Part shown: positions 421-31,342 of the stretch, one piece after another
Layout of the letters: the number at the start of each line of letters is the position of its first letter
How positions within the stretch are numbered: position 1 is the stretch's first letter
Source: Elusimicrobiota bacterium
Lineage (GTDB): Bacteria; Elusimicrobiota; Elusimicrobia; F11
DNA length: 49,982 bases
Direction: 5' to 3'
NCBI GenBank assembly: GCA_046153645.1
Contig: JBJXGI010000089.1
Coordinates: 1-49,982, forward strand
The notes under the pieces: model-generated
Database searches by the model: none
What the model was told of the DNA's origin: nothing
What the model saw: only the letters and a program-made list of their open reading frames with translations
Position numbers and translations under genes: made by a program

Positions 421-452
421 TCAAAAAAATAATGCCCCAAACTAACACTCCA

Positions 453-11276: not shown

Positions 11277-11305
11277 TTGTCTTCATTCATATTGAAATCT
11301 ATACT
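11277..11305 (+). promoter_or_regulatory. Sigma70-like promoter, probably giving a leaderless mRNA
   Basis: TTGTCT-N17-TATACT, then 7 nt to ATG 11313; no SD. Confidence 0.55.
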
Positions 11306-11312
11306 CATTTTA

Positions 11313-14477: not shown

Positions 14478-15037
14478 GTTATCCAAACCAACTTCTTTCT
14501 CTTCTCAATAAATATCAACCGATAGACGAAAGTGATCTCGCTCATAAAACAAAAATTATTCATTTTGTTGAAAATGAACCTGACTGCTTCAAGAAAAGTT
14601 TATTAAAAGGCCATGTCACTGGATCAGCCTGGGTTGTTGATCCTTCTCATCATAAAGTTTTGCTTACTCTTCATAAGAAATTAAAAAAGTGGCTACAACT
14701 AGGGGGGCATGCTGATGGAGAAAGCGATCTTCTTCAAGTGGCGATACGAGAAGCACAAGAAGAATCTGGCTTAGAAAAGATATTTCCTATTTCGACAGAA
14801 ATCTTCGATTTGGATATTCATTTGATCCCATCCCGACAACAAGAGCCTGAACATTTTCATTACGATATTCGATTTATGCTCGAAGCCTCCCAACCAGAAC
14901 TCATCAAAAAAAGTAGCGAATCAATTGATTTACGCTGGATTGATATAGAGCGCCTAGAAGAATTCTCAAATGAAGATTCTTTACTTCAAATGAAAAAAAA
15001 ATGGTTAAAACTTAAGATGGGGAAAAAATACTACTGA
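14474..15037 (+). CDS. NUDIX hydrolase
   Basis: GHVTGSAWV, WLQLGGHADGE..AIREAQEESGL, HYDIRF. Confidence 0.92.
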   Translation: MSYPNQLLSLLNKYQPIDESDLAHKTKIIHFVENEPDCFKKSLLKGHVTGSAWVVDPSHHKVLLTLHKKLKKWLQLGGHADGESDLLQVAIREAQEESGLEKIFPISTEIFDLDIHLIPSRQQEPEHFHYDIRFMLEASQPELIKKSSESIDLRWIDIERLEEFSNEDSLLQMKKKWLKLKMGKKYY

Positions 15038-16506
15038 ACACTTAACTTTTTTAGAGTTTCTTCCATCCACTCACTTCCGTCAATAGGATGAGAACCGATA
15101 TAGGCTTGAACGACTTCTTTGGCTTTAACATGATCAGGCTTAAAACCAATCAGCGTTAACGAGGCAACAACACGAACTTCTTTTGAAGGACTTGAAATGG
15201 ATTTTTCAAAAGTATCAATGAAAGTCGGAGACGAATATTGCGAAATGAGATAAGCGTCCCGAACTGAGAGCTTAGAACTGGCCACATTTTTCAACAATAA
15301 CTCCATTAAAGGCCGACCCAATGCTGCCAGTTGCGGCGCGGCCATTTCTTTAAACCCGTGAATTTGTGGGTGTTCACCCACCTTTCTAAAAAGAGTCAAA
15401 AATTGGGGATAAAGAACATTAGACATTCGTTCGGTTTTAACCAAACCAATTTTCTGAAGTGCGTAGAATGCTCTTGCGGCAACAAAAAGATCAGTATCAC
15501 TCATTCGTTCGGTCAAAGCCGCCAAATCACCCAAACGAGCTGGCTCTATATTTCCCGCGCGCCAAGCCGCTCGATAACGGAGAACTGAATTTTTCTGTTT
15601 TAAGTCAAACGCAATATCAATGGGTTGTTCTCTCCTTCGGTCAATCTTCAATAAAACCTGAGCTAGGCGAGAGCGCAGATAAAAATCATCCCCATATCCA
15701 TCTTCCGCTTTTAGTAATAACTTACTCAAAGCCGAAGACATGTGATGTGCATCTGCTCCTAAACTTTGAAGCGCCGTTAAGACTTGGGATGATGTTTCCA
15801 CCAATTTCTGGTTATTGGCATTTTTTTCCAAAAACTCCATAAAGGCAGGGGTAACCCCCAAAAACGAGGGCTCCATTTTATGAATGGCCAAAGCCGCTTC
15901 TACTTTTGTTTCCAAGTCAGAATCTCTTAAAAGTGTTTTTAATGGGGGGACTGCTTCAAAAGCAGAAGGTTCTATTGAACGAATAAGTTTCACTAACTCT
16001 AATTTTGATCCAGTCTGCGTAAGAGCATTTAAAATATCAGGAAGAGCCTCTTTCCCCATTTTCTTTAAAATATCAACACTCCCCGATTTTTGAAGAGCCT
16101 GGGAACTATCAACTGTTTTTATTAATAAAGGTATTGATGGTTTTCCAAATTCTTGGAGAGAAACGGCGACTTCTTCACGAACGCTGGCGTCGTCATCGCC
16201 CAATCGACTTATCAAAGCCAACAAAACATTTTGATCTGAAATCCCACTTTTCCGAAGAGAGTAAATGGCAAATCTTTTTGAAATGGGGTTTGTGTCATTC
16301 AGTTTTTCAAGAAGACTTGAAACCAATATTTGTTTTTTATCGAGGGGAAGTTTATTCATTTTTTGGAGTGCAGTGTTACGGGTCATATCATCAGAAGAAA
16401 TAAGGCGATCAACCAAAGGAGTGCGTTGTTCATTCCAAAAAAGAAACCCAGCCACTCCTCCCAAGAAGACCAAAATAACCAAAAGTATTTTTTTCGTTTT
16501 ATTCAT
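15031..16506 (-). CDS. Membrane-anchored HEAT-repeat protein
   Basis: N-terminal TM helix; repeats LGDDDASVREEVAVSL, LLRDSDLETKVEAALAI. Confidence 0.8.
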   Translation of the reverse strand: MNKTKKILLVILVFLGGVAGFLFWNEQRTPLVDRLISSDDMTRNTALQKMNKLPLDKKQILVSSLLEKLNDTNPISKRFAIYSLRKSGISDQNVLLALISRLGDDDASVREEVAVSLQEFGKPSIPLLIKTVDSSQALQKSGSVDILKKMGKEALPDILNALTQTGSKLELVKLIRSIEPSAFEAVPPLKTLLRDSDLETKVEAALAIHKMEPSFLGVTPAFMEFLEKNANNQKLVETSSQVLTALQSLGADAHHMSSALSKLLLKAEDGYGDDFYLRSRLAQVLLKIDRRREQPIDIAFDLKQKNSVLRYRAAWRAGNIEPARLGDLAALTERMSDTDLFVAARAFYALQKIGLVKTERMSNVLYPQFLTLFRKVGEHPQIHGFKEMAAPQLAALGRPLMELLLKNVASSKLSVRDAYLISQYSSPTFIDTFEKSISSPSKEVRVVASLTLIGFKPDHVKAKEVVQAYIGSHPIDGSEWMEETLKKLSVQ

Positions 16507-17786
16507 ATTTCTCCCAAGACTTTTATTAAAAACTGATTCAAATGAAGGGCCTCAATACGCGATTCTTTTTTCTTTAAACCAAATTGAAGTTGATTCAAGC
16601 AAGAAGCGCTACTGGTCACCACCACAGAACATCCAGAATCAATAATAGATTTTATTTTGACTTCTAAAATAGCCTGTGACATTTCAGGGTGAACAAAACT
16701 ATAAGTCCCTCCCCCCCCACAACATTGGTCGGCATCGGTAATCTCAACACGGTGCAAATTTTGAATGGAATCTAATAGCTCTCTGGGCGCTTGGGTTGAT
16801 TTCATCGCATGCTGCGCTTTACAAGGATCGTGATACAACACCAATCCACCTTTCCATGTTTTTTTTCTCAGCAAATCTTTCAACCCTTTTTGAAGAAAAT
16901 AACTCGGCATATCGCGCAGCTTGAGCATTAATTGCTGAGCTTTTTTTAAAGCCAAAGAATCATCTTGTAAATATTTCGAATAATCCTTGAAATGAGACAA
17001 GCAGGAAGAATCATCAACCAATATATTTTCATACTTTGAAATCATCTCAATATTGTTTTTTGCTGACAATTTAACTTGAGACAAATCACCATAACTGGCC
17101 GAAGGAAGCCCACAGCAAGGGAGTGACGGAATGGCAAACGAAATTTGTAGTTTTTCGAGTAATTTTACAGTCGAAATTCCTATCTGAGAATTTAAGTACT
17201 GAGTTCCACATACCGGAATAAGCGCTACTTTTTCAACAGAAAATTCTTGCTCGAGGTGTTTTTTGGCTAAGGCATAATCCATTAAAAATGAAAGTGAAAC
17301 AGGCCCGCTTACCTGATGCGCCGCTTCTAAAGTGGGCGAAATTAATTTCAATAAACCCATCTTTGATAACAACCAAGATATTCCTATTTTTTTTCCAAAA
17401 AACAAAAACCAAATTAACTTCGAAAGTCGAGGAGGATAGGGAATTATTGTTCTCAAAAGAAACTTTTCAATTTTTGATCGACCTTTTTTACTGGCAAGAA
17501 ATTGACGCGCTTGAACCATGAGATCGGCGGTAGGAACCTCAGAAAAACAAACCGTGGTACATTCTCCGCACAACAAACAACTATCAATGCTACTCTGCGC
17601 GTCCAATGGATTGGACAATTTCCCTTCAATAAGAGCTCGAACCAGTTGATTTCGACCTCGAGGAGAATGGGTTTCATTTCCCGTGGCCCGATACGTAGGA
17701 CAATAAGAGGTGCAAAAACCACAACGGTTACAAGCGGCGGTTTTCTCTTCGATGGCCTTTAATGAAAATGAATTATTATTTTCCAT
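16503..17786 (-). CDS. glcF: Glycolate oxidase-type Fe-S subunit
   Basis: CNRCGFCTSYCPTY, SPRGR, CLLCGECTTVC; CCG domains (CCG, YHDPC, CCGGGG). Confidence 0.88.
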   Translation of the reverse strand: MENNNSFSLKAIEEKTAACNRCGFCTSYCPTYRATGNETHSPRGRNQLVRALIEGKLSNPLDAQSSIDSCLLCGECTTVCFSEVPTADLMVQARQFLASKKGRSKIEKFLLRTIIPYPPRLSKLIWFLFFGKKIGISWLLSKMGLLKLISPTLEAAHQVSGPVSLSFLMDYALAKKHLEQEFSVEKVALIPVCGTQYLNSQIGISTVKLLEKLQISFAIPSLPCCGLPSASYGDLSQVKLSAKNNIEMISKYENILVDDSSCLSHFKDYSKYLQDDSLALKKAQQLMLKLRDMPSYFLQKGLKDLLRKKTWKGGLVLYHDPCKAQHAMKSTQAPRELLDSIQNLHRVEITDADQCCGGGGTYSFVHPEMSQAILEVKIKSIIDSGCSVVVTSSASCLNQLQFGLKKKESRIEALHLNQFLIKVLGEI

Positions 17787-17792
17787 ATATTT

Positions 17793-19913
17793 TTAGGAAT
17801 TCCAAAATTTATCTGAAATCTTTTTTAACGCATCAGAACTAATTTCTGACTCAGAAGATTCACCTTCTGGTTTTTGGGCAATTTCTTCATTTGTTAAGGT
17901 TGTTAATCGTGGAGCCATCAAACCAACCGGATCAAAAGCGCTTTTTATTTTTTTATGTATTTCACGAAATACAAAAGGGGTTGTTTTAACGGATTTAGAA
18001 GAAGCTTGGGCAAAAGAATATAAACGAAAGGTGACATCTAAAATAATTCCCAATGTTCCCCATGATCCAATCATGAGTTTGGGAACGTCATAACCTGCCA
18101 CATTTTTCATTGTTTTTGCTCCCAACTGGACAACCTCTCCCGTGGGGAGAAGAACTCGCATTCCAAGAACCAGATCACGTAACGAAGGCGCCACACTCTG
18201 ACGAGTGGCTAAAACCCCGCCAATACTGCCTCCCCCAGCAACCCATAAAAATTGACCCGCGGCCTCAACTTCTCGCCTCGCCTCTGCAAGTAAAGCACCC
18301 GATTGAATTGTTAATGTTAAGTTTCCTTTATCAAAATCAATAATCTTATTGAGTTGTTTCATTGAAACGATCAATGTTTCTTTTAAACGATATCGTGACG
18401 TTGTACCTTGAACACCAAAAGGTGTTTTTTTATGCGCCGCCGATCGAATTGTGTCAATAAGTTCGGGCTCAGTTGCTGGCGAAAATTTCCCTATCGCCAC
18501 CAAATCCGCCGAAGATTCACGAGGAACTTCAGGCGCTACTTTTCCCACCAACGGAATTAACTTATCAGGATTACATAAATTGGCAGGATCAAACGTGTGT
18601 TTAATTCTTCTAAAAAGAGAAAGCGTTTCTCTAGAGAAAAGCCATTTCATGGCTTCTCGTTTATCAATCCCCACGCCATGCTCTCCTGAAATGGTGCCAC
18701 CCAAATCAACGCAGGCTTTTAACATTAAATGCCCGGCTTCTTTTACTCGCTTGGTTTGTTCAATATCTCTTTCATCAAAAATAATTTGTGGGTGGAGATT
18801 TCCGTCTCCGGCATGAAATAAAAGCGCCACTTTAAGTTTAGCGGCCTGAGCAATTTCTTTTATTTTTTTAAGGGCTTCTGGTAATTTTGTTCGTGGCACC
18901 GCCCCATCTTCAACCAATACATTGGGTGCCAACCGTGCCATTGCCGCATAAGAACCGCGGCGCCCTTCCCATAGTTTTTTTCGCTCTTCTTCATCTTTTG
19001 CAAAACGGAATTCTTGTGCCCCATTGTTTTCACACATTTTTTGAATGGTATAAACTTGGGTTTCAAGTGAATCTTCTTTTGAGCCATCCACTTCAATGAG
19101 TAAAACCGCCTCTGCATCAACGGGGTACCCGGCATGAATAAAAGCTTCTACCGCCCTAACAATGGTTTGATCCATTGCTTCTAAGGTTGCGGGGAGAACC
19201 CCTGCTGCAATAATGTCAGATACCGCTTGTATTGCTGATTCAATAGAAGGAAAACTCACCAGCATTGTTTTGACCTGTTCTGGTTGTGGTAGTAATTTCA
19301 ACTTGGCCTTGGTGACAACACCCAATGTCCCTTCTGATCCCACAAAAAGACCAGTTAAATCATAACCAGGGTCATCTAAGCTGGTTTGAATCAAATTTCC
19401 ATTGGGGAGTACGACGTCCAATCCCAAAATGAATTGAGAGGTGACTCCATATTTTAAACAATGCGGGCCCCCGGCATTGGTCGCAATGTTACCACCAATC
19501 GTGCAAGCTTTTTGACTCCCAGGATCGGGTGGATAAAAAAGTTTTGAAGTCGCCACATATTCTTGGATTTTGAGGTTAATAACACCAGGTTCAACAATCA
19601 GTTCTTTTCGTTCTTTGTCTAACTTACCAAACTTATTAAAACGTGCCATCGCAATAACTGCCGCGCCATTTAACGGAATCGGCCCCCCACAAAGACTGGT
19701 AGCAGCCCCTCTCGCCACATAAGGAATTTTATTTTGAACAAAAACTTGAACGACTTTCTGAACCTGGTCCGCATTTTGAGGAATCACAACCACCGAAGGA
19801 ATAGAACGGTCTAATGCCGCGTCAAAGGAATAAGAGAGCAACTCTCCCGATTCGCAAAGCACGTTTTCTTTTCCTAAATACCCAATTAATTTTTGAATGA
19901 TTGATGGATTCAT
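17793..19913 (-). CDS. glcD: FAD-linked oxidase, GlcD fused to a shortened GlcE-like domain
   Basis: PPDPGSQKACTIGGN..GPHCLKYGVT, GSEGTLG, HAGDGNLHP, GEHGVG, FDPANLCNPDK; then a second FAD domain with KNVAGYDVPKLMIGSWGTLG. Confidence 0.88.
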   Translation of the reverse strand: MNPSIIQKLIGYLGKENVLCESGELLSYSFDAALDRSIPSVVVIPQNADQVQKVVQVFVQNKIPYVARGAATSLCGGPIPLNGAAVIAMARFNKFGKLDKERKELIVEPGVINLKIQEYVATSKLFYPPDPGSQKACTIGGNIATNAGGPHCLKYGVTSQFILGLDVVLPNGNLIQTSLDDPGYDLTGLFVGSEGTLGVVTKAKLKLLPQPEQVKTMLVSFPSIESAIQAVSDIIAAGVLPATLEAMDQTIVRAVEAFIHAGYPVDAEAVLLIEVDGSKEDSLETQVYTIQKMCENNGAQEFRFAKDEEERKKLWEGRRGSYAAMARLAPNVLVEDGAVPRTKLPEALKKIKEIAQAAKLKVALLFHAGDGNLHPQIIFDERDIEQTKRVKEAGHLMLKACVDLGGTISGEHGVGIDKREAMKWLFSRETLSLFRRIKHTFDPANLCNPDKLIPLVGKVAPEVPRESSADLVAIGKFSPATEPELIDTIRSAAHKKTPFGVQGTTSRYRLKETLIVSMKQLNKIIDFDKGNLTLTIQSGALLAEARREVEAAGQFLWVAGGGSIGGVLATRQSVAPSLRDLVLGMRVLLPTGEVVQLGAKTMKNVAGYDVPKLMIGSWGTLGIILDVTFRLYSFAQASSKSVKTTPFVFREIHKKIKSAFDPVGLMAPRLTTLTNEEIAQKPEGESSESEISSDALKKISDKFWNS

Positions 19914-19951
19914 AACTAAGATATTGCTTGATCATTATAGCCTTCCAATTG

Positions 19952-19967
19952 AGTGACAGCTATCACC
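19952..19967. promoter_or_regulatory. CRP/FNR-family-like palindrome in the divergent intergenic region
   Basis: AGTGA-CAGCTA-TCACC compared with consensus TGTGA-N6-TCACA. Confidence 0.45.
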
Positions 19968-20037
19968 TTGCTGAAATGACCACCTTCTGTTAGGTTCATA
20001 GTCATAGAACAAACAAGACTTTAACGGGAGTAATAAC

Positions 20038-20265
20038 ATGCCAAAAATTGAATACCAATTTAAACCAGAACTTGAAGAACAGCAGAAGAAAGATGTCATA
20101 GAACAAGTTGAAGGCGCGCTCAGACAAGGAATCTTTAAATATGCCGCCAATGACTCCATTTTAGCCATCATCAACACTGATTCTCTCAATCGCCACTTTT
20201 TAGCGCGTCTTAGCAATGCAAAAGATAAAACCAACCTCTCTGGGAAAATTAAACTCGCCGCTTAA
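20038..20265 (+). CDS. Small hypothetical protein (75 aa) ending in LAA
   Basis: SD GGGAG 7 nt upstream; candidate promoter TTGCTG-N17-TAGGTT (19968-19996); protein-like composition. Confidence 0.7.
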   Translation: MPKIEYQFKPELEEQQKKDVIEQVEGALRQGIFKYAANDSILAIINTDSLNRHFLARLSNAKDKTNLSGKIKLAA

Positions 20266-20307
20266 ACATTTTGAGCTCATAAAAAAAACGTTACAACTCT
20301 TTTTCAA

Positions 20308-20343
20308 AAACTTAAGGGAAACTTAAGAACATTTCTTTATCAT
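20308..20343 (+). promoter_or_regulatory. Direct-repeat operator plus -10 box for the giant gene
   Basis: AAACTTAAG twice at an 11-bp period (CTTAAG-N5-CTTAAG), then N10, TATCAT, and 6 nt to the ATG. Confidence 0.55.
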
Positions 20344-20349
20344 GGCGGG

Positions 20350-23300
20350 ATGTTAAAAAAAATATCTTCGCTTATATTAACGCTTCTCTATACTTTTATG
20401 CAGGTTGTTTCCGCTCACGCGGCGGAAACATCTCTTTGGGCGGAACGTAAAAACCACTTTCAAAATAAAAATTCCGAAGCTCAAACGTCTCCCATTAATC
20501 TAAAAAACCTAACCCTTCCTTTATTTTATAACCAACGTTTTATCAATCTGGGTTTCGCAGAGTCTCACCCCGTTCAAACCATTCCTCAAGACATTGTTTC
20601 TATTCAGGAGATCCATAAGGGCTCTCAAAAAAACTTTGTTTTTCTTATTCAAGACATTCATCAACACACACAAGCGCAAGAAATCATTGCTAAAACCATT
20701 CAAACCATTTCAAAAAATTCAACCCAAGAGATCATGATCGCACTCGAAGGAGCCCATGGTTTATTCGATTTTGAACCATTTAGATATTTAACGACTCCCG
20801 AAATAACAAAAAAAATAGCGAAAAATTTTCTCAATGAAAAAAGAATCTCTGGGGCTGCTTATGCAGGGCTAACCATGGAAGCCCCTTTGCCTCAATTTAT
20901 GGGGGTTGATGACCCTCTTTTATATTCAGACCACGTGAAAGCCGTTCAAGACGTTGAAAAGAACAAAAAGAACTTTGAAAACCAAATTATAAAGTCAAAA
21001 ATTGAACTTACTGAAAACTTCTCTCAACTGAACCCTCATTTACAACAACTCTTAACAATCAAACAAGAATATATGAAAGGGAAGTTATCGCTCTCAGCTT
21101 ATATAAATGAGTTTCACACATATTCAAAAGTTAAAATCCCCGCAGAATTAAATTCTTTTAACCGTACCGCAGAAATCGAGAAAAGCCTTCATTTTCAAAC
21201 CATAGAAAATGAACGAAAAAAGGCTTTTGACCTTTTATTCTCAAAATTAACCGAAGCCGAATCAAAAACGTTTATCCAAAAAATCTGGGGCTTTAAGGAG
21301 GGTAAAATTTCCAGCTCACAATTTTATTCTGATTTTTTTCAACTTCTTAGAAATAAAAACATTAAAAAAGAGAATTACTCAGCACTTCTTCAATACACTG
21401 TTTACTTAGAAAATATTGATTCTCTCCAAATTTCCAAGGTTCTTGAGGAGCTTGATGCTTATCAGACGGCTGTCGTTGAAGAATATGCCACCACTTCATT
21501 TGAGCATGCCTATATTCGAGAAGAAAAAACCGTGTCTTTATTGGAAAAATTATTGAATTTTTCTCTCACAATGAACGAATGGCAACAATACAAAAAAGAG
21601 AAAAATGCACCCTCTTTCCTCATTGAAAATAAGTTTAGCGACGTATCTTTATTTGAAAAGTTTTACGAACTGGCAGATAAACGAAGTGAAAAAATGGCCG
21701 TGAACCTCCTGGCTTCTTCCAAAACAGCCCAAAATGCCATTTTAGTTACGGGCGGATTCCATACTGAAGAAATCTTAAATGAACTAAAAAAACAGGGCAG
21801 CTCCTATGTGATTCTTCAACCAAAAATTTCCCACGTCAACGAAATAAATGGCTCAGATTATTTATCTGTCTTTACACGAGAAAAAACGCCTTTAGATAAA
21901 TTGATGATGGGCGATAAATTATTCTTGACCAATGGGGCAGAGTTAATAGGGTCTCCTAATAATATGGCTCGCCCTGTATCAGTACTTTTTAGATCTATTC
22001 AAATATGGATTTTGGCTCAATCACACAAAGGTATTTTTTCAAGACAGGGGTTTGTCATACGACTATTAAAAACCGGAATTGAAATTACAGATCAATTATT
22101 CCTTTCGGTTCTTTTTCTATCAAAAAACCCCGATAAAAATTCAGAAACCGTACAAACCCCAGAGGGTATTTTGCATGTTAAAGCCGCGCCCTTAACCAGT
22201 GAAAAGACTTATGAATGGGCGGAGAAAAGAGGGTTTTCCAAAAGATTCGCGGAAGTCTGGGTTGCTTTTTGGAAAGAAGCTTATGACGTCTTTACTGCAA
22301 ATTATCTCGATAAAGCTCATAACCATATTAATGACTGGCAAAGAACAAAACGAAGCTGGGGGTTACGACTCATTTGGCTTTCTGGATTCATGGGAGCAGC
22401 ACTAACAGCTTATCTTTTTTCATCTGCACTCAATAATATTACCCAAAACAAATGGTTTACTTACTTAGCTCTTATCGCGATTGCTGAAAATATTTTAATT
22501 GCCTCTGACCTGAGAGCTCGCTTAATAAAAGACAAAAATAATATTCATAAATTTATTTACTATCCGATGAATTTTGTTTTTTCACTTATTGCTCTCCCCG
22601 CTATAATTCCTGGCACCATCGTCCACTTTTTTTGGAACGTTATTTTCAAAAGCGCCCCCTTAACCAGCACCCCTAAATTTGAAATTACCGATAAAACCCG
22701 AGATATCTTTAAAAAATCAATCGGAAATGAAGCGCTCTTTTTTTTAGCGGACTTTATTAACGACGAATTAATGGAAATTGCAGACTCATATTATTCAGGC
22801 GACACAATAAATCAATTAGATAAAGCTTTAGAGAAAATTAAACGCATAAGTGGAAAAAGAAAAAAATTTAACGAGCCTGGAGTCAACATAGGTGATAACA
22901 TGCGCCTCATCTGGGAAGCTCTGCGAGACGCCAAATATCCCATCGGTGATATTATTTTACCGCGATATTCAGGCACCTTAGACCCATTAGTGCAAGAGTG
23001 GATTGATCATTATACACATGAAGAATTTTTAACCCCTAAATTATCCCCGAATTTTCTGGCCACTAACAAGGGAAAAATATTATCCATGATGGGATTAGAT
23101 TTTCCCAAAAAACAGGAGGATTTAGAGCCAAAACACCAAGCATTATTTCCAGAAGTAGTGCCAGAAACCTCAACAGAAGTTTTTGATAAAAAATTAAAAC
23201 CACTCATCAAAAACGGATTGGAAAACCCCAAAAAAGAAAGCGCTCTCTTTATTTATTTTGGCTTGGGCACGGCTTTGCCTTTGGCGGAGACTCTCCTCTC

Positions 23301-26300
23301 TATTGAGAAAGTTACTATTATTGGAATTAGTCGAGAAAACATTTGGTATTTACTTCAATCAATCGATTATCAATACATTCAATGGGGGCTAACAGAAGAA
23401 CAAAGGAAAACAGTTCTTAAAAGACTTACCATAGAAATCAAAGATCCTTTTGGAATCATTGACGCTTTTACCACTAACTTCAAACATGAAATTGTAAATT
23501 TCAAAAAATACCTCGAAGAAGCGGGCAAGAAACCTCAAGCCAAAATAGTAAAAGAAAAAATTAAAAAATTTTATCGAACAAGATTTTTTGAATTGATAAA
23601 AAAACTTGAAGATGTAAGCTGGGAGTTAATTAATTCAAATCAAAAATTTGACTATATTATTTCAGAAAACACTCACTTTTATTTTATATCACTCATAAAA
23701 AATATTTATTCTCAAACCGCAGGGAAAACCTACCCCCAAAATCTACAAGAAGATCAAAATTTTATTGGAACCTTCCTTGGCCCTATTGCGCTTGGAAAAC
23801 TAACTAAACTTTTTCAAGATCATGCGCATGATGAAACAAAAATATTTTTTGCTGAAGCCAATGGGAAAATACAAATAAAGCCACTCACTGATAATTCTGG
23901 ATATGAAATCGGCGATCATTCAACCATAAATGATTTCCTTGGACTCTTGTATCCATTATTTACCATATTCCCTCTCGGTATTTGGCCGTGGCCTTTAGAT
24001 TTAGAAAAATTAACCAAAGAAACCTCTGCCAGTTTAATTAACGGTTTTATTTTTAAAAAAATAAAAGCTGCACCTTCCGATAAAGAAGAAGTGGAAAAGC
24101 CTATTTACAAAGAAAGACAAATTTCCAGAGAAGACAAAACCATGCTTATCTCAGAACTAAAAAAATATAATTTGACCCTTCCTGAGGATATTATTACGGC
24201 TCTTTTAAAACTACCTTACGCTCAAATTTCACTTGAAGGAGTTGATCTGATTGCAAAAACAGAAAGTGGATCCCTAGTCGTAACAAATGAAAATGCCCTT
24301 CAAATTTTATTTGCCCTTCAAAAAGTAGACGATGAAAGATTCAAAAAAGATTTTTATGGTTTAAAGATCCCAAGATACATGGATAACGAAGGAGCCAGAA
24401 TAAGTTTTCACCGCTGGCGCGCTGTTCAAAATCATACAACGCTCATCCCGACACAACGCATCATTCGCCTCCACGAATTAAACCGCCGAAAAGTTATAGA
24501 AAAATTACTGGAAATTGAAACGTCACAGGTAAGAGAACTTGATGAATTATATGATCCACTTTTTTTAAAAGATGCTTCTTTCGGAGATATTGAAAAACAA
24601 AAAAAAGAACTGCGTGAGTTAGCAAAACAATATTTTTCAAATCCAATAGATAAAAAAGTTCTTTTTAATATCTTTGATCAAGATGATTCATTTGCTCTTT
24701 TAGAAGCGGTACTAAAACACAAAGAAGTCCACATTGCCGATTGGAATGATTTGGTTCTCCGTGAAAAAACCATTCCGGAACTTGTTCTTCAAATGAAAGC
24801 CATCGGCTTAAAACCCACGGAAATAAAAACCCTTTTAAAAAGATTGCGTTTTCACATTCAGGATTTAAGTGGTTTTATAACAGAATTCTCAGAAAAGTTA
24901 TCCAAAATTGTAGAGGAAGGAAAAGCGAATTACGACGCCGCGATAAATTCAATTGCATCTGAGCCGAAAGAAAAATCATCCGCGAAAAATACTTATCTTG
25001 GACCAAAACCTAGAAATATGGGCGAAGCCGCAAAATTTTTATTTGATCAAAAAGCCAAAAGCCCTAAACCGCTTTCTCAGGTATCTCCTGAAAAAACCCT
25101 AGAACTAATGAGAGACAAAATATTAGACCTTATTAAAGAAATAAAGTTTTCCGGTTGGGCGCCTGAAGGAACAGAAAAATTTGATCTAGTCATTCATTCT
25201 ACCTATGTAACCCATGTTATGGAGATGATGGGGAAAATAATTGCATTTGAATTAATTTACGATGACACTTTTTCGGAAGAATTATTTGATGACTATCGCC
25301 CCTATATTATGAGCGCGATTAGGAAAAAATTAAAAAACTTTATTGATATTCAAATGGAATTATTCGACAAATTAATGGCCAAAAATGGACGCAGTGTTAT
25401 TTTTGATTATAATGGAAGAGTTACAGTATTTTTAGACGACAATAAATTTAAGATAGTAAAAAACCCAGGGACGGACGAATTTTTCAATGGTTTAAAAAAT
25501 AATTTTAATGTTGAGCAAGTAGATGAGTGGCCCTTTATTCATACAGAAGTATCAAACAAAACCCCCGCCAATGGACTTTCGGCTACAGCATTATTTTTCT
25601 CAAACAAATCCATTGAATCACCACGAATTGAAATTGACGCAGTAAAACCAGAAAATACGGAAGTAAAACCGGTCGAATTAGAAGCGGCCCCCCTCACACC
25701 AAGAGCTCCAAAAACTCCAATACAAACCTCAGGTGGAATAATAAATCCTCTCCCAAGAACATCTGGAAAGGTTAAAGCAATCACTTCAGGAAAACCGGGA
25801 ACACCTCTGAAACCAAAAAGTGTCGGAGATACTTCTCCTGTGGCAGTAAATGAAACTATACCCGAACCAGATCCAGATTATGTTCGAATTGGAAATAATA
25901 GTGAGCCACCTTTTTTCATTATAGAGGGACCAATTCCATTAATCGTTGATGACGGGGCAATTCAAGTGACAGGTCCACTTGCCAATACAGTGACGATTAT
26001 GGGGCCTGTTGTCCTAGGTTTTACTGTTGCCGATGCGACATTAAATGAATCAAAACCACCCACACCCAAACAAGTCAGACAAATACCTGAACTATTTTCA
26101 CCTAATACAGTAGACGATCAAAACTTGCTTTTAAAAATTGCCATAGAAATCATCCCAGACTTTTCCGATTTAATCCCTGGATTTGATTTTTCTTGGGTTT
26201 ATTCTTATGCCGATAAACTCCTGCAAAATGTTGATTTAAAATCACGAGAGAGCGCAGAAGCGGATATTCGAGATTCACTCATGGGAATGCTTGAAACTGC

Positions 26301-29300
26301 CGTTACTTTTTTAGAATTTTACCCTAAAGGTAATTTAACCGAAGCAATTTCAATTCATCTCCAAAAACTTATTGAAGCATGGGAAAAAGTTATTGAAGCG
26401 GGAAAAAATGGAACTGAAATCATCGTTGATCACTACGAAATTACAGAACAGACACTGAGCTCTTTTACTCCTGATTTACCAGAAATATTTATTAACAATT
26501 TTAGTGAGGATGACCAAAATTATTTAAAACATCCACGTCAAAACAATTTAAGAGAACCTCTTGAGAATATTTATTGGAACCTAAAAACACGCGAAGATGA
26601 TGCTGATGACCAAGAAATTTTTAAAGTCTTAAAAGTGTTTATCCAATATCGAGTTGAATCAGGAATGCTGTCAAGTGATGAACGCGTGGTTTACGCCAAT
26701 GAGTTTTTAAGTTTTATCGCTATGAATACGGACCTTTCCATTGATTCTATTCTCTCTATTGCTCAACAATATGAAGAATTTTTAAGGTCCAACTTCAGCG
26801 ATCGAAAACAAATTTACCCCTTGGCTATTTTGGAATCTTTTCGAGAGAATTTGACTCCTGATCCTGAAAAATATTTGGTTCAACTGGAAGATGAAAATTT
26901 TACACCTCCCGAAGAAACGGAAGAAGAAATTCAGAAAAGAATAGACCGAAAAGATATTGAGATTATGGTTCTAAGAAAATTAATTTTCTTTTCCGCACTT
27001 TTCAAGTCAGAAGATGAAACAACCAAATTCACAAATGACTTTGTTCGTTTTATTCAAGAAATAAAAGAGGCCAATAATCGTGATTTAACTAAACCAGAAA
27101 TTGAGTTTTTGGCTGACTTAACCCTTCAATTCATGACACACTTTTTAAAGCATAAAGAATTTTCAGCAACAAGTGTCCCTTATTACATTTTTAAAAAATT
27201 AAAAAATATTATTTTGACTATCAATGAGACCCCAAACTTGGAAACACTCAAACAAGAAACAATAAACAAACATTTTGGCGAATGGGAAATTTCAATACTA
27301 GCCGATATAAAAACAGCCACTGATCGAGCCAATGATTTAATGAGCATTTTAAAACAGGCAACAAACTCGCTCCCTCCCGAACAACAAAAACGTCATATGC
27401 AAGCCATTGTTATAAAAGCTCTCGCTATCATCAACGGCGGTGAAGAAGTGATCTCTTTAGAAAATTCGGATCTCGATTTAGAACTGATACAATCAGCCGC
27501 TCAACAAATGGCGGACTATGTTAAAAATAACATCGAAGGCCAAGGCGACGGTACGCATACGATGCCTCTCGAAATATTTAACCGCCTTTTCAAGAATTGG
27601 TCAGCTGACGATGGGAAAACAGATGTAAAACTCCCAGAAACCACGGAAGAATTAGCTCCGGTTGCGGCTTCTCCAGATAAGGCAGATGAAAAGGCTACTG
27701 TGGATGCAGCCACTCTTCCAAATACAGTCGCAACACTTCCCGTGGTAGAACAAATCATAGAACCTCAAGGACCTGCTGCACCAATACAAGTTCAAACGGA
27801 AACAAACCCGCTGCCACCATTTGAAACTGGAATCATTGCCAAAGTAAATGAAGCCATTGACCAAGTTTCACCCGAAACAGAACTGGGCTTCCGAGATAAC
27901 TTTTCCCAAATCATGATTCAATTTTTAAAGCCATATGCGGATAAAATAAAAATGGATTTGGATTTTGTTGTTCCTCTCTCTCTATATTTATTTGAAATGG
28001 GCGTTTCAGCTGAAAATCAAGGACTGCCTTATATATTGGGTGTCAAAAGAGTTCTCAGAATTACTCACGAATATTTTCAAACTGATTCTTTTACAAGCAA
28101 TGTGGAAAGAATTAAAAACACCACTGATTATTTAGCGGGCAGCTTTTCGAACACTTTTTCGCCCGATATAAAACAATTGTTATCTAGAAATTCACAAACT
28201 TATTTACAAAAAAATGATACTCCACTAGTCACCATTAATAAATTTGAAGAACTTGTTGATACGCTGCTTCAACTTGTTCCCCCTCAGGACCGAAACGAGT
28301 TCAACAAGACCAGATTTATTAATGAAATCACTTCATTGATAAGAAAAACAATAGCTGGTGAAGCTGCCATACCAATGACAGAAGAACAAATAAACTCCCT
28401 GTTTAATTTTGTTTTGTGGGGAATTGCCTTAATGAATAATCCGCCACTACCAAAAGTTGTTGAGTTTATTGCCATCTTAATGCCCAAATTAAAATTGCTC
28501 CCGGAAATTAATGAAGATGCGCTTGAAATATTAATTAGAACAGCTATTGATGAGACAGAAATTGTTTGCGCGCGAATTCTTTATTTAAATACAGAAACAC
28601 GAAAAGCCCTTGATTCTGAAGAAGGAAAGCCATACTTGAATTTTTTCGATTTAATAGGCCAAATCATCTTGAGTAAAACCACAACCCATATAGAAGATCA
28701 AGATCGGATAAAATTTATCACATCTAACTTAATTAACATAAAAGTTCAAAATACTCTCTTAAGAAATAACCCAGAGAAGATGACCTTATTATTAACGGAA
28801 ATCATCGCTGCATTAAATGCTAATCCAAATTCAAAATTGAATGATATTGCGGTGATCGTTATGACGGTATCAATAAAATTGGCTTCTTATTGGAGAGATT
28901 TAAGTGAGATCACATCTTTTAAATCATTAATACAGGAAGGAATTAAAGAGGCAATAAAATATTCTGAAAGTTGGGAACTGCTTAAATCACCAATCAAAAA
29001 AAACCTCTTTCAAATAAATGGTACTCCTGTCATTATGGCGTTATTAAAATTTTTAAAAGAAACATATTCTCATATGCCAAAAAACAACACAGACAAAGCA
29101 AAAGAGGGAATACGCTATTTAACAGTGCACATTTTCGATCAATTCTCTTCAGACAAATCAACACTTCAAGAAGTTCTGGAATTTTTAACAACACAGTTAG
29201 AAACTAACCCGAGAATAGGAACAAAACTTTTCGCTGAAGCCGCAAAGAAATATATAACAGCATTAGCAACCTTGCTTAATGACGGGAAAGGTTTCTCACA

Positions 29301-30399
29301 AATAAATTCAAACGATATATGGTCGGGAGCACTTTCTGATGCCGATAAGGAATTAACTACAAGAAGGCCAAAACCGGGCGAAGATGCCCCTGGATCCATG
29401 TTTGGCTTGCCCCGTATTGACCCCATGTTGGAACTTCCTTTTTATTCAGGAATTTCACTCTCATTTATTTTACCGTGGTTAGCGGCGACATTGAACTTAA
29501 CTGAAAATATCAATGTTCTGTTAACTCTCGGATTTATTGGAGCCATTTTAGGGTTTTTCGTTACAAAACATATTTTTGGTCCTCTTTCATTAGCGCTTCA
29601 CGAAAAATATGGCTTTAAAACTCTTCGAGATAAATATCCACAATTACGAAAATTTGACCTTCGCGAACAATCAAAATTTATTTTCAAAACACTCAACAAA
29701 CTAACACTGCTTTCGCTTTTTATTTTTGTTTCAGTTCCGCTCTTTTTACCACAGATGAGCGACTGGGCCTCTATTTTATTCCCCACTTTTGATGGCAACG
29801 TGCCTCAATTATTTTTGGGTGGTGTTATAAGAGCGCTTATCTTAAATTTCATTGTTCATGAAAGGGGAAATATTAAATTTATTATCAATCAACATGTGAC
29901 CGAATATCGAATTGAAGCCCTTCGTCAAAAATCGCCCCACCGGATGATTTTAATTCCGTCATCTAATTTAAAGAAATTTGCCGAAACCGTAAAACATGTT
30001 TCTGCTTTGTTATCGGCTCAAACAGAAAAATCTCAGGAATTAATGTTATTACTCACTTCTGAACAAAAAGAATGGGAATCTGATTTACAAAAACTTTCTT
30101 TACCTCAACAAATAACCATCGTCTATCAAGAAAATATCAGCGATAAAAAATTATTTGAAAATACTCTTCTTACTGAGGTTTCAGGAGGAAGGACCTTTGT
30201 CACATTTATCCTTCCCCCTGACCCCATTATTTCAGATGAGGTGGCATTAAATATTTCTCATTATTCAGCTGATCCAGTTTATAGCGACAACATCAGAATT
30301 AAATTCTTGAATGTGATTAAAAATGCACTCAAAAACATTCGACCAGGAAAACTAATTGATGTGATTAGGCAATTAACAGCTGGCCAAACAAATGCCTAA
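20350..30399 (+). CDS. Giant (3349 aa) secreted/membrane multidomain protein
   Basis: Uninterrupted 10-kb ORF; signal peptide ending SAHA; QDIH/LEG/KRSEKM/GGFH motif set; two TM clusters; internal duplicated domain; Pro-rich linkers. Confidence 0.9.
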   Translation: MLKKISSLILTLLYTFMQVVSAHAAETSLWAERKNHFQNKNSEAQTSPINLKNLTLPLFYNQRFINLGFAESHPVQTIPQDIVSIQEIHKGSQKNFVFLIQDIHQHTQAQEIIAKTIQTISKNSTQEIMIALEGAHGLFDFEPFRYLTTPEITKKIAKNFLNEKRISGAAYAGLTMEAPLPQFMGVDDPLLYSDHVKAVQDVEKNKKNFENQIIKSKIELTENFSQLNPHLQQLLTIKQEYMKGKLSLSAYINEFHTYSKVKIPAELNSFNRTAEIEKSLHFQTIENERKKAFDLLFSKLTEAESKTFIQKIWGFKEGKISSSQFYSDFFQLLRNKNIKKENYSALLQYTVYLENIDSLQISKVLEELDAYQTAVVEEYATTSFEHAYIREEKTVSLLEKLLNFSLTMNEWQQYKKEKNAPSFLIENKFSDVSLFEKFYELADKRSEKMAVNLLASSKTAQNAILVTGGFHTEEILNELKKQGSSYVILQPKISHVNEINGSDYLSVFTREKTPLDKLMMGDKLFLTNGAELIGSPNNMARPVSVLFRSIQIWILAQSHKGIFSRQGFVIRLLKTGIEITDQLFLSVLFLSKNPDKNSETVQTPEGILHVKAAPLTSEKTYEWAEKRGFSKRFAEVWVAFWKEAYDVFTANYLDKAHNHINDWQRTKRSWGLRLIWLSGFMGAALTAYLFSSALNNITQNKWFTYLALIAIAENILIASDLRARLIKDKNNIHKFIYYPMNFVFSLIALPAIIPGTIVHFFWNVIFKSAPLTSTPKFEITDKTRDIFKKSIGNEALFFLADFINDELMEIADSYYSGDTINQLDKALEKIKRISGKRKKFNEPGVNIGDNMRLIWEALRDAKYPIGDIILPRYSGTLDPLVQEWIDHYTHEEFLTPKLSPNFLATNKGKILSMMGLDFPKKQEDLEPKHQALFPEVVPETSTEVFDKKLKPLIKNGLENPKKESALFIYFGLGTALPLAETLLSIEKVTIIGISRENIWYLLQSIDYQYIQWGLTEEQRKTVLKRLTIEIKDPFGIIDAFTTNFKHEIVNFKKYLEEAGKKPQAKIVKEKIKKFYRTRFFELIKKLEDVSWELINSNQKFDYIISENTHFYFISLIKNIYSQTAGKTYPQNLQEDQNFIGTFLGPIALGKLTKLFQDHAHDETKIFFAEANGKIQIKPLTDNSGYEIGDHSTINDFLGLLYPLFTIFPLGIWPWPLDLEKLTKETSASLINGFIFKKIKAAPSDKEEVEKPIYKERQISREDKTMLISELKKYNLTLPEDIITALLKLPYAQISLEGVDLIAKTESGSLVVTNENALQILFALQKVDDERFKKDFYGLKIPRYMDNEGARISFHRWRAVQNHTTLIPTQRIIRLHELNRRKVIEKLLEIETSQVRELDELYDPLFLKDASFGDIEKQKKELRELAKQYFSNPIDKKVLFNIFDQDDSFALLEAVLKHKEVHIADWNDLVLREKTIPELVLQMKAIGLKPTEIKTLLKRLRFHIQDLSGFITEFSEKLSKIVEEGKANYDAAINSIASEPKEKSSAKNTYLGPKPRNMGEAAKFLFDQKAKSPKPLSQVSPEKTLELMRDKILDLIKEIKFSGWAPEGTEKFDLVIHSTYVTHVMEMMGKIIAFELIYDDTFSEELFDDYRPYIMSAIRKKLKNFIDIQMELFDKLMAKNGRSVIFDYNGRVTVFLDDNKFKIVKNPGTDEFFNGLKNNFNVEQVDEWPFIHTEVSNKTPANGLSATALFFSNKSIESPRIEIDAVKPENTEVKPVELEAAPLTPRAPKTPIQTSGGIINPLPRTSGKVKAITSGKPGTPLKPKSVGDTSPVAVNETIPEPDPDYVRIGNNSEPPFFIIEGPIPLIVDDGAIQVTGPLANTVTIMGPVVLGFTVADATLNESKPPTPKQVRQIPELFSPNTVDDQNLLLKIAIEIIPDFSDLIPGFDFSWVYSYADKLLQNVDLKSRESAEADIRDSLMGMLETAVTFLEFYPKGNLTEAISIHLQKLIEAWEKVIEAGKNGTEIIVDHYEITEQTLSSFTPDLPEIFINNFSEDDQNYLKHPRQNNLREPLENIYWNLKTREDDADDQEIFKVLKVFIQYRVESGMLSSDERVVYANEFLSFIAMNTDLSIDSILSIAQQYEEFLRSNFSDRKQIYPLAILESFRENLTPDPEKYLVQLEDENFTPPEETEEEIQKRIDRKDIEIMVLRKLIFFSALFKSEDETTKFTNDFVRFIQEIKEANNRDLTKPEIEFLADLTLQFMTHFLKHKEFSATSVPYYIFKKLKNIILTINETPNLETLKQETINKHFGEWEISILADIKTATDRANDLMSILKQATNSLPPEQQKRHMQAIVIKALAIINGGEEVISLENSDLDLELIQSAAQQMADYVKNNIEGQGDGTHTMPLEIFNRLFKNWSADDGKTDVKLPETTEELAPVAASPDKADEKATVDAATLPNTVATLPVVEQIIEPQGPAAPIQVQTETNPLPPFETGIIAKVNEAIDQVSPETELGFRDNFSQIMIQFLKPYADKIKMDLDFVVPLSLYLFEMGVSAENQGLPYILGVKRVLRITHEYFQTDSFTSNVERIKNTTDYLAGSFSNTFSPDIKQLLSRNSQTYLQKNDTPLVTINKFEELVDTLLQLVPPQDRNEFNKTRFINEITSLIRKTIAGEAAIPMTEEQINSLFNFVLWGIALMNNPPLPKVVEFIAILMPKLKLLPEINEDALEILIRTAIDETEIVCARILYLNTETRKALDSEEGKPYLNFFDLIGQIILSKTTTHIEDQDRIKFITSNLINIKVQNTLLRNNPEKMTLLLTEIIAALNANPNSKLNDIAVIVMTVSIKLASYWRDLSEITSFKSLIQEGIKEAIKYSESWELLKSPIKKNLFQINGTPVIMALLKFLKETYSHMPKNNTDKAKEGIRYLTVHIFDQFSSDKSTLQEVLEFLTTQLETNPRIGTKLFAEAAKKYITALATLLNDGKGFSQINSNDIWSGALSDADKELTTRRPKPGEDAPGSMFGLPRIDPMLELPFYSGISLSFILPWLAATLNLTENINVLLTLGFIGAILGFFVTKHIFGPLSLALHEKYGFKTLRDKYPQLRKFDLREQSKFIFKTLNKLTLLSLFIFVSVPLFLPQMSDWASILFPTFDGNVPQLFLGGVIRALILNFIVHERGNIKFIINQHVTEYRIEALRQKSPHRMILIPSSNLKKFAETVKHVSALLSAQTEKSQELMLLLTSEQKEWESDLQKLSLPQQITIVYQENISDKKLFENTLLTEVSGGRTFVTFILPPDPIISDEVALNISHYSADPVYSDNIRIKFLNVIKNALKNIRPGKLIDVIRQLTAGQTNA

Positions 30400-30519
30400 T
30401 CTAACTCTAAACAACTCACATCCTTAGTGGAAATTTCTTTACAATAGTTTTACTGACCCCTTTTTTACGCCTGAACGACCCACCATAAAATCTCTCCATT
30501 CAATTTCAAGGAGAGTAAA

Positions 30520-31215
30520 ATGAAATTATTATCTAGAGCCATTATTATTGTATTGGGATTTTCGTCTCTGTGTTATTGCCAAGAAAAGCCGTCTCTTCCA
30601 GAGCGAGAAATATATTTGGGACTCTTGCTGCCCAATGTAGGCCTTAATTCCGATTTTAGCGGAGACAAAGCCTTTATCGGTAGTTATGGAGGACACACGG
30701 TTGATTTTGTCACAACCGTCCCTCGTATTGACCGTTCTTTTGGTTGGGGAGGAACGCTTGGTTTTAAAAAATATGTTGATCCACAGTTCGCCATTGGTGC
30801 CGAAGCCAACTATATCCAAACCAAACACGATACTCGTTGGCTGGATTTAAATGACACGGCCACGTATCAAAATTTTTCAACTGATTTCAAAGCCTATTTT
30901 AACGCGAGTCAAAAAATTCAACCCGTTGCTCGTCTTGGAATTGGATTTAACACGTTATCTTTGAAAAAAGGCTACATTGACCAAAATTCAACTAAAAAGA
31001 TTTCATACTTAGGAATGAACTTCAATTTAGGATTTGGGGTGGCTTATTATCCAAACGATAAATGGGGATTTCAGTTCACAACCATTTACCGGCCAACTAA
31101 ATTCAACAGAATCGATCTTGATGGCGTTCGTGAATTACCTGAAGACTTAAAATCAAACAGCGTAGATTTTGAATTTGGTGTTGTTCGACGATTTGTTATA
31201 GGGAAAAAAAGCTAA
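30520..31215 (+). CDS. Outer-membrane beta-barrel protein (OmpA-like 8-strand type)
   Basis: Signal peptide; alternating beta-strand pattern (FGWGGTLGF, QPVARLGIGF, GMNFNLGFGVAYY, FEFGVVRRF); SD AAGGAG. Confidence 0.8.
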   Translation: MKLLSRAIIIVLGFSSLCYCQEKPSLPEREIYLGLLLPNVGLNSDFSGDKAFIGSYGGHTVDFVTTVPRIDRSFGWGGTLGFKKYVDPQFAIGAEANYIQTKHDTRWLDLNDTATYQNFSTDFKAYFNASQKIQPVARLGIGFNTLSLKKGYIDQNSTKKISYLGMNFNLGFGVAYYPNDKWGFQFTTIYRPTKFNRIDLDGVRELPEDLKSNSVDFEFGVVRRFVIGKKS

Positions 31216-31223
31216 AAAAGAAA

Positions 31224-31334
31224 CCTCACCCACCCCTCTCCTAAAAGGAGAGGAGAAACTATCCTAATTCCCGAAAAGAGAAGAGGAAAGTCTATCCCCT
31301 CTCCCGCTTTAGCGGGAGAGGGTTAGGGTGAGGG
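31224..31334. repeat. Inverted pair of BoxC-like purine/pyrimidine palindromic repeats between convergent genes
   Basis: CCTCACCCACCCCTCTCC-TAAAA-GGAGAGG (from 31224) and CCCCTCTCCCGC-TTTA-GCGGGAGAGGGTTAGGGTGAGGG (31296-31334). Confidence 0.75.
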
Positions 31335-31342
31335 CTATGTAA

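Follow-up and report, generated by a model that had tools for sequence, protein, structure and literature searches.

According to passages of two reports, the giant proteins of the Omnitrophota are very long, mostly sequence-unique chains with a signal peptide, many transmembrane (TM) helices and enzyme domains of cytoplasmic type, and an N-terminal peptidase-type domain has been suggested to cut the giant (West-Roberts et al., 2023, 10.1101/2023.11.21.568195; Nielsen and Lui, 2026, 10.64898/2026.06.07.730766). The second report gives TM helices or a signal peptide for 94% of 916 long proteins and speaks of "multi-enzyme metabolic clusters" (Nielsen and Lui, 2026). Here we describe the gene for a protein of 3,349 amino acids (aa), P0001, on a stretch of 49,982 nucleotides (nt) from an uncultured member of the Elusimicrobiota (the window: positions 1-49,982 of contig JBJXGI010000089.1, assembly GCA_046153645.1). 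P0001 opens with a head of the Tiki fold that is common to 44 open reading frames (ORFs) of its genome, and these Tiki-headed giants seem to be the Elusimicrobiota counterpart of the Omnitrophota giant membrane proteins. A signal peptide and TM helices are shared with the latter, but the Omnitrophota giants considered in those passages have at least 10,000 aa and carry a C39 or S8 peptidase together with SecA-DEAD, whereas no C39, S8 or SecA Pfam domain was found in P0001 and the Elusimicrobiota family has a Tiki head, a CPBP-like module, an alanine tail and an upstream element common to its genes. Nowhere in the main text of Nielsen and Lui (2026) do Tiki, TraB, CPBP or polyprotein occur as words, none of the 12 passages considered (of 21 in West-Roberts et al., 2023, on Elusimicrobia, N-terminal, transmembrane or paralog) describes a Tiki-type head, and we found no description of the family in the literature searched (preprint supplements and most subscription journals lay outside the search). 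New in P0001 are its orphan body, which is predicted to be cytoplasmic, an E...H...HxxxN pattern of its second membrane module in three copies, and its position on an 11.4-kb segment that is absent from all five relatives examined.

We lean, tentatively and with somewhat less than even confidence, toward reading P0001 as a conditionally processed, membrane-tethered giant with the Tiki head in the periplasm, the body and a CARF-like C-terminal domain in the cytoplasm, and two membrane modules that resemble CPBP proteases (TM1 and TM2) bracketing the body. The frame is open over 10,050 nt at a GC content of 35%, for which chance is not the expected source. Short contigs from four DNA runs of one study, compared over nt 19900-27150 of the window, are identical to it with no differing letters, indels or joints, which is weak support, and for sequence accuracy only, as the runs may include the source sample. 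Neither Pfam nor NCBIfam returned a model above any cut-off for the whole of P0001 or for eight segments of it, and a search of PDB sequences gave 0 matches.

The succession of parts along P0001 (Table 1) agrees with an earlier reading of this stretch made from its letters and ORFs, hereafter the sequence-only reading. The N-terminus (MLKKISSLILTLLYTFMQVVSAHA) is signal-peptide-like with a hydrophobic peak at aa 5-23, and the two TM modules appear as three hydrophobic peaks at aa 672-760 and four at aa 3029-3169, respectively. Between them, the two alpha/beta domains (A and B) that had been called related align with 21% identity over 326 columns (BLASTP, E = 7e-6; phmmer reciprocal), aa 1761-1960 form the Pro-rich linker, and the long acidic region (aa 1961-2420) has a net charge of -34 and 18% D+E. 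The C-terminal domain, at aa about 3194-3335, yields a confident alpha/beta model. A second Pro-rich linker (aa 2421-2500, 13.8% Pro) is absent from the list of that reading. The motif string that it had placed within nt 20590-21830 lies at nt 20650-21762 [QDIH (aa 101-104), LEG (132-134), GVDD (185-188), KRSEKM (444-449) and VTGGFH (466-471)], and the Tiki/ChaN/Ere fold that it had proposed for the N-terminal domain is borne out by a fold model and by the retention of the superfamily's catalytic positions.

Members of the Tiki superfamily [ChaN 2G5G, erythromycin esterases, Bcr135/136, Tiki1/2, TraB/PrgY/GumN, RRSP, the C2 domain of Pasteurella toxin (PMT) and HopBA1] are the best structural matches of the head, which has the same beta-sheet core and the same motif order (D/E)xH ... 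E ... R ... GxxH. The AlphaFold2 (AF2) model of the head has a mean predicted local distance difference test score (pLDDT) of 76.7; within aa 71-490 the means of 10-residue blocks are 82-97, mostly 87-97, with two blocks at 77, and the core is a central parallel beta-sheet with flanking helices, which is the fold of the superfamily. Among 39 paralog heads, 17 have a match to Pfam PF04187 (ChaN, Tiki superfamily), the best with E = 6.5e-6. The head of P0001 itself did not match PF04187, PF05139 or PF01963 at E up to 10, a PDB search with a head profile gave nothing below E = 0.06, and a Foldseek search with the head model returned nothing significant (Bcr135 at rank 10, E = 0.54). Active TIKI enzymes, as described in passages of PMC6254334, share a set of two His and two Glu (2His/2Glu), given as E3900, H3902, E3930 and H4030 in RRSP and H85/E113 in Bcr135. 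D102-x-H104, E133 and H471 of P0001 follow the order of this set with Asp instead of Glu as the first acidic residue, and H104 and E133 are 29 residues apart vs. 28 in both RRSP and Bcr135. The fold and the 2His/2Glu order, with the PF04187 matches of paralog heads, support assignment of the head to the Tiki superfamily.

Fifteen positions (D102, H104, Q110, E133, G134, G185, Y352, F438, Y439, A442, R445, G468, G469, H471 and P491) are invariant in all 39 aligned heads, and for the key residues this is far more than would be expected by chance. The heads of the giants differ from other members of the superfamily in the Asp at the first Glu position, in a helical insert of 270 residues that contains a PAH-like part, in their fusion to thousands of variable residues and in their number, with 44 copies in the genome. 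The combination of a signal-led head with membrane helices presumably resembles the ectodomain-plus-anchor layout of PrgY/TraB and Tiki1/2. Directly past the head core lies aa 489-530, the linear stretch with the highest conservation in the family; in the 39 heads P491 is invariant and Y504, L505, F508 and L515 are near-invariant, and the stretch is modeled with low confidence (pLDDT block means of 28-45 from aa 501). It is tempting to speculate that this stretch is a docking or cleavage site.

The genome of the window (G000) comprises 2.63 Mb in 105 contigs and is 99.7% complete. The first 650 residues of P0001 match 55 places in it, each of which opens a long frame, and the head is common to 44 of its ORFs of at least 300 aa (phmmer, E below 1e-3), which total 105,463 aa, or 12.0% of the genome. 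Complete copies range from ~0.9 to 10.2 thousand aa (the longest ORF has 10,179 aa) and shorter ORFs are broken by contig ends. An eighth of the genome of a free-living bacterium is therefore taken up by 44 giants on one chassis. The middles of these ORFs differ, as the sequence-only reading had envisaged, and no paralogs of the other eight modules of P0001 were found in the genome (phmmer, E < 1e-3). That reading had recognized no described system of this architecture, and we likewise found no characterized family that is collinear with P0001 from end to end: 27 other giants in the public protein database (2,220-5,781 aa) align with it over 4-16% of its length, which is the head alone. Their named sources are Elusimicrobia or Omnitrophica/Omnitrophota, the latter label on two of them. 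The precomputed Pfam annotation of these proteins is mixed and comprises glycolytic enzymes, sigma-70, PP2C, ABC1 kinases, M48 peptidase and helicases. A profile of the 39 heads identified the module in 62 of 201 sampled Elusimicrobiota genomes, about a third, and in 32 of 77 genera, with frames of up to 11,814 codons; in one family it was found in none of 58 genomes.

Among the 43 other family ORFs of G000, the 15 longest that were fetched were scanned with Pfam, and eight had matches and seven none. The domains comprise SNF2 and SF1 helicases, AAA_5, two S-adenosylmethionine (SAM) methyltransferases, sigma-70 regions 2 and 4, a metallophosphatase and one SdiA-regulated propeller, with the sigma-70 regions located between TM segments. 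The largest paralog [10,179 aa, G000:C86:11312-41851 (-)] carries, at aa 4,800-9,500, about nine membrane cassettes of five helices each, spaced evenly. Glycine is also lower in the 44 family ORFs, in addition to the depletion of Cys considered below; P0001 has one Cys among its 3,349 residues.

The intramembrane glutamic proteases of the CPBP/Rce1-like type (type II CAAX, Abi; PF02517) have EExxxR as motif 1; their motif 2 is a His that follows the second core helix, and motif 3 is HxxxN/D. PF02517 matches three paralogs in G000 with 27.9, 22.8 and 13.4 bits (cut-off 22.4), so that the module following the head lies above the cut-off in two of them, and all three matches are at ~aa 600-770, immediately past the head. 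In an alignment of 43 post-head modules the H and HxxxN columns are conserved. TM1 of P0001 has H759-FFW-N763 in the conserved HxxxN column and H733 as candidate motif-2 His, and a paralog profile built without P0001 matches aa 652-833 weakly, at 12.7 bits. TM2 has two known relatives: a contig-broken C-terminal fragment in the same genome (G000:C2; 25% identity over 177 columns, pairwise E = 1e-9) and a protein from another genus of the same family (G009) that is collinear with TM2 and the C-terminal domain (26% and 22% identity). Nine residues of TM2 are invariant in all three copies (R3005, R3006, P3007, D3024, E3028, H3084, N3166, H3170 and N3174), and with them the pattern E...H...HxxxN (E3028, H3084, H3170ERGN3174) is kept in copies that are otherwise 22-26% identical to P0001. 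By these motif definitions, motifs 2 and 3 are present in both modules (motif 2 of TM1 as a candidate) and EExxxR is present in neither: TM1 is without the glutamates, and TM2 has a single invariant Glu (E3028) with no Arg, its spacings, at 56 and 86 residues, being longer. The modules of the giants also differ from CPBP proteases in being embedded in a giant chain rather than free-standing. The peptidase modules that the sequence-only reading had put at both ends of the cargo can accordingly be retained in part, as two membrane modules with protease-like residues, and not for the C-terminal domain.

The charges around TM2 alternate, with K/R counts of 4|0|8|0|5 in the segment before it, its three loops and the segment after it, predicting a four-helix arrangement with both N- and C-terminus inside. 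The segment past TM1 (aa 767-790) has 6 K/R, so that, with K/R-rich juxtamembrane segments on both sides of the body, both ends of the body look cytoplasmic. We predict on this basis that the head alone is exported, lying outside the cell membrane and facing the periplasm, and that the body of 2,200 aa and the C-terminal domain are cytoplasmic. The recognizable domains of the paralogs fit cytoplasmic bodies, because they need cytoplasmic substrates; the sigma-70 regions, being between TM segments, could act only after leaving the membrane. As the segment before TM1 looks cytoplasmic too, one further crossing would be needed between the head and aa ~660.

Much of the body is orphan sequence. 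When the region of A and B (961 aa) was compared with 1.84 billion representative proteins it matched itself alone, weak matches being found in two of 11 genomes of the same family. The ESM Atlas relates the region to class I SAM methyltransferases at 0.88, which is below the 0.9 line of the tool and makes a methyltransferase a lead only. Segments A, B, H1, linker and H2 had no Pfam match, no internal repeats were detected in H1, the linker or H2, and the Atlas gave no usable match for aa 1961-3000; the helicity of H1 and H2 is a label of the sequence-only reading. The C-terminal domain, as modeled by AF2, has a CARF-like Rossmann fold. CARF domains are known from type III CRISPR effectors, including the membrane-bound Cam1, Cap1 and Chp1 (PMC10808066, PMC12642688, 10.64898/2026.08.05.743128). 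The domain of P0001 differs from these in ending a protein of 3,349 aa and in being without a CARF sequence signal, an evident ligand motif or Csm1/Cmr2 in its genome, for which reason we call it CARF-like in fold and not a member of the CARF family. This type of domain is common in G000 to P0001 and the C2 fragment only, and no relatives of aa 2990-3349 were found among proteins of 1,841-5,861 aa. A C-terminal domain shared by the whole family was considered and rejected, as a profile of the domain recruited no further paralog over five rounds.

The mechanism that we infer for such a giant comprises catalysis, ligand binding and cleavage. In the periplasm the head would bind or hydrolyze a ligand, either a peptide or ester or the conserved linker of the family itself, and in the cytoplasm the CARF-like domain would have a small ligand of its own. 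Either input, or both together, would govern whether the chain is cut at the membrane modules or close to them, and through such cuts the cytoplasmic body would be released or turned over. P0001 may thus process itself. If processing or ligand gating holds, this would be a new bacterial way to store cytoplasmic modules at the membrane and release them, and the question of why bacteria with small genomes make giant proteins would become testable with a construct of 350 residues. P0001 offers several handles for such work, namely a hydrolase-type head with intact catalytic positions, protease-like residues in TM2 and a CARF-like fold outside CRISPR. We consider unlikely a bolder form of the idea, that the giants are bacterial polyproteins under control from either side of the membrane, each inserted by its head and cut by CPBP-like modules of its own, and that in P0001 a CRISPR-independent, CARF-like sensor next to TM2 would make release or destruction of the body depend on a signal of the cyclic-nucleotide type.

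Several observations weigh against conditional processing. The TM1 of P0001 has AYLFSSAL where paralogs have PLLEE/PFLET (PLLEE in canonical members), and hence is without the motif-1 glutamate that CPBP proteases need; neither TM1 nor TM2 matches PF02517; and some proteins of the CPBP-like kind may be scaffolds with no catalytic role. For TM2 the AF2 model is of low confidence (pLDDT 33-68) and leaves the fold unconfirmed, and hhalign of TM2 against the post-head module gives a probability of only 33%, with the HxxxN motifs in register. The candidate for the additional crossing before TM1 (aa 572-590) is weakly hydrophobic. The CARF-like model was built from three sequences, the C-terminal domains of P0001, the G009 relative and the C2 copy have no Pfam or PADLOC CARF match, and the columns invariant in the three copies are mostly hydrophobic with no evident CARF ligand motifs. 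Nor did models of Cas10 [TIGR02578 (Csm1) and TIGR02577 (Cmr2)] match at E up to 0.01 anywhere in this nearly complete genome. Finally, Cys makes up 0.17% of the family ORFs vs. 0.82% of 917 other ORFs, a fivefold depletion that is more typical of exported proteins and fits poorly with body domains of cytoplasmic type.

It is quite conceivable, if on balance doubtful, that P0001 is instead a stable, uncleaved membrane-anchored protein, in which the periplasmic head is an envelope enzyme or ligand sensor, as in proteins of the PrgY/TraB type, the membrane modules are pseudo-protease anchors and the body is a tethered scaffold or enzyme (possibly methyltransferase-like) tuned by the CARF-like domain. 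The evidence on architecture and topology is the same for such a protein as for a processed one. The missing glutamate of TM1 and the lack of a Pfam-level CPBP match in P0001 speak for it, as does the finding that PLLFS/PALLS replaces PLLEE at motif 1 in many paralogs. However, the invariance of E, H and HxxxN in TM2 copies of 22-26% identity would be difficult to account for in a module that only anchors, the sigma-70 modules of paralogs would be useless if permanently tethered, and the conserved Ala-COOH tail and the conserved linker of low model confidence suggest recognition by a processing machinery.

The sequence-only reading had favored a secreted, possibly self-processing surface or effector protein with multiple cargoes, serving predation, host interaction or competition. 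On such a view P0001 would be exported and delivered to the surface or to other cells, as an effector that cuts itself or as a polymorphic toxin. Polymorphic toxins (PMC3482391) have a conserved N-terminal part, a variable remainder, many paralogs and rapid divergence, and the giants share each of these traits: the N-terminal module is conserved and the remainder variable across 44 paralogs, and the body has diverged very fast (22-26% identity in G009 vs. 59% for its GlcD-like neighbor). The lineage-specific insertion of the gene alongside an outer-membrane barrel gene, the depletion of Cys, as in proteins translocated unfolded, and the presence in the Tiki superfamily of the injected effectors RRSP, HopBA1 and PMT C2 would also suit an effector. 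In the giants, however, the whole body varies rather than the C-terminal tip, and the C-terminal tail is conserved. Unlike polymorphic toxins and MARTX proteins, P0001 has no RTX, CPD, type I secretion system or other secretion-related Pfam domain and gave no PADLOC match, and no toxin or trafficking domain was found (15 paralogs scanned; cargo of sigma factors, helicases, AAA+ and methyltransferases). No downstream immunity gene or family-wide companion is conserved either, as 20 of 32 family genes have any downstream ORF and two related pairs occur among these, and no other family gene is accompanied by a paralog of the barrel gene. TM1 and TM2 add up to seven hydrophobic peaks (three and four, respectively), and positive-inside charges put the body in the cytoplasm; the head is the only part predicted to be exported, and the C-terminal fold is of a kind known from cytoplasmic sensors. 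A body predicted to be inside the cell, with a CARF-like fold at its end, leads us to conclude that P0001 is probably not a secreted toxin, and an effector of this kind is distinctly unlikely. That the family is fast-evolving and largely functionless or selfish, its ORFs kept open without a specific role for the body, would accommodate an orphan body without homologs among the 1.84 billion representatives, ~1,000 residues with no Pfam or Atlas signal and a lineage-specific presence, but is highly improbable given a stop-free frame of such length, catalytic-type residues invariant in 39 of 39 heads, TM2 and tail residues conserved despite low overall identity, two domains with confidently folded models and retention of the family in 32 of 77 sampled genera.

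Table 1. Features of the giant gene and its surroundings, in positions of the window.
Feature	Position (nt)	Strand	Basis or detail
Lineage-specific 11.4-kb segment (75-aa ORF, giant gene, outer-membrane beta-barrel gene)	19914..31342	.	between GlcD-like gene and PPDK
75-aa ORF, ends ...GKIKLAA (ssrA-like LAA end)	20038-20265	+	between GlcD-like and giant genes
Shared upstream element	20290..20343	+	boxes GTTACA 20290-20295, TTTTCA 20301-20306, CTTAAG 20311-20316, CTTAAG 20322-20327
-10-like TATCAT	20338-20343	+	6 nt before ATG
Giant gene, 3,349 codons and stop, ATG start	20350..30399	+	sole long frame there
Predicted signal peptide or signal anchor (aa 1-24): KK, hydrophobic core, AHA	20350..20421	+	sequence, hydrophobicity, family consensus
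Tiki/ChaN-fold head, aa about 60-495	20527..21834	+	fold model and invariant residues
Helical insert splitting head core, aa 189-456, with PAH-like four-helix part	20914-21717	+	
Most conserved linear family stretch, aa 489-530	21814..21939	+	consensus TPKxTKxxxxxGSxYLSVFxQEKTPLDKLFxGxKLFL
TM1, aa 621-770, CPBP/Rce1-like by position	22210..22659	+	three hydrophobic peaks aa 672-760; PF02517 in paralogs
Alpha/beta domains A (aa 800-1250) and B (aa 1251-1760), sequence orphans	22747..25629	+	internal repeat
Pro-rich linker, aa 1761-1960, 14% Pro	25630..26229	+	composition
Acidic region H1 (aa 1961-2420), second Pro-rich linker (aa 2421-2500), H2 (aa 2501-3000)	26230..29349	+	composition
TM2, aa 3001-3180, four predicted helices	29350..29889	+	four hydrophobic peaks aa 3029-3169
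C-terminal alpha/beta domain, CARF-like Rossmann fold, aa about 3194-3335	29929..30354	+	AF2 model
Family tail ...GKLIDVIRQLTAGQTNA, Ala-COOH end	30349..30396	+	L at -15, I at -11
Outer-membrane beta-barrel gene, 231 aa	30520-31215	+	PF13505 E = 2.5e-10; 120 nt past giant gene, same segment

The ends of the giant gene are shared with its family to different degrees. Upstream, the four boxes are spaced at 11-nt steps, and the position of the TATCAT hexamer relative to the ATG would give a leaderless or near-leaderless mRNA. The same layout of boxes is visible upstream of many paralogs: a strict TTAAK-N6-TTAAK pattern occurs within 80 nt upstream of 16 of the 41 family genes with a complete 5' end, vs. 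123 matches on both strands of the entire genome, and a looser four-box pattern precedes 10 of the 41, vs. 33 matches in the genome. We infer that this shared element may act as a promoter. A perfect 10-bp stem (five G-C pairs, 5-nt loop) at 20406-20430 (+) lies within the codons of the signal peptide, about 57-81 nt past the predicted leaderless start, with a possible effect on how the giant gene is transcribed or translated. At the other end, 30 of the 32 family ORFs with a complete 3' end have a final Ala (75 of 946 among the other ORFs with 300 aa or more), the family endings being AA (9), NA (7), HA (4), QA (4) and others; the G009 relative ends in VAA and the C2 fragment in LNA. At -15 the tails prefer Leu, and at -11 they prefer a hydrophobic residue. 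The tail of P0001 (...KLIDVIRQLTAGQTNA) has both and is a weak member that falls below E = 0.01 against the family tail profile. The Ala end and this loose pattern are all that the C-termini of the family share.

In all five genomes of the same family in which the site was examined (G011, G004, G003, G005 and G001) PPDK abuts the GlcD-like gene with no giant or barrel gene between them, indicating that the 11.4-kb segment is lineage-specific. Ends of a mobile element were sought at its borders, and no direct or inverted repeats of at least 10 nt were found. The 75-aa ORF has no paralogs in the genome (tblastn, E up to 10), and neither does the barrel gene, which is thus no family-wide companion. 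The GlcD-like neighbor is 59-68% identical in nine of 11 same-family genomes, and the other two have contig-cut fragments of 65% and 70% identity. In comparison, the best identity for the body of P0001 is the 22-26% found in G009 only. The G009 relative of TM2 and the C-terminal domain is L054 (G009:C246, nt 10-1131, minus strand), which ends in ...AAAVAA; A/B-like sequence is present on a separate contig (C202), so that G009 may hold a split and very diverged ortholog of P0001.

Further observations concern the genes on the left of the segment. The GlcD-like gene [17793-19913 (-)] encodes a 706-aa GlcD (TIGR00387, 560 bits, cut-off 567.9) fused to a GlcE-like second FAD-binding part (aa 483-632), and together with the adjacent gene for a GlcF/LdhH-like Fe-S protein [16503-17786 (-)] makes up a fused glycolate or lactate oxidase set. 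Beyond these, two genes for HEAT-repeat proteins [11277-14477 (+), 1,066 aa with a TTG start, and 15031-16506 (-), 491 aa] flank a small NUDIX gene.

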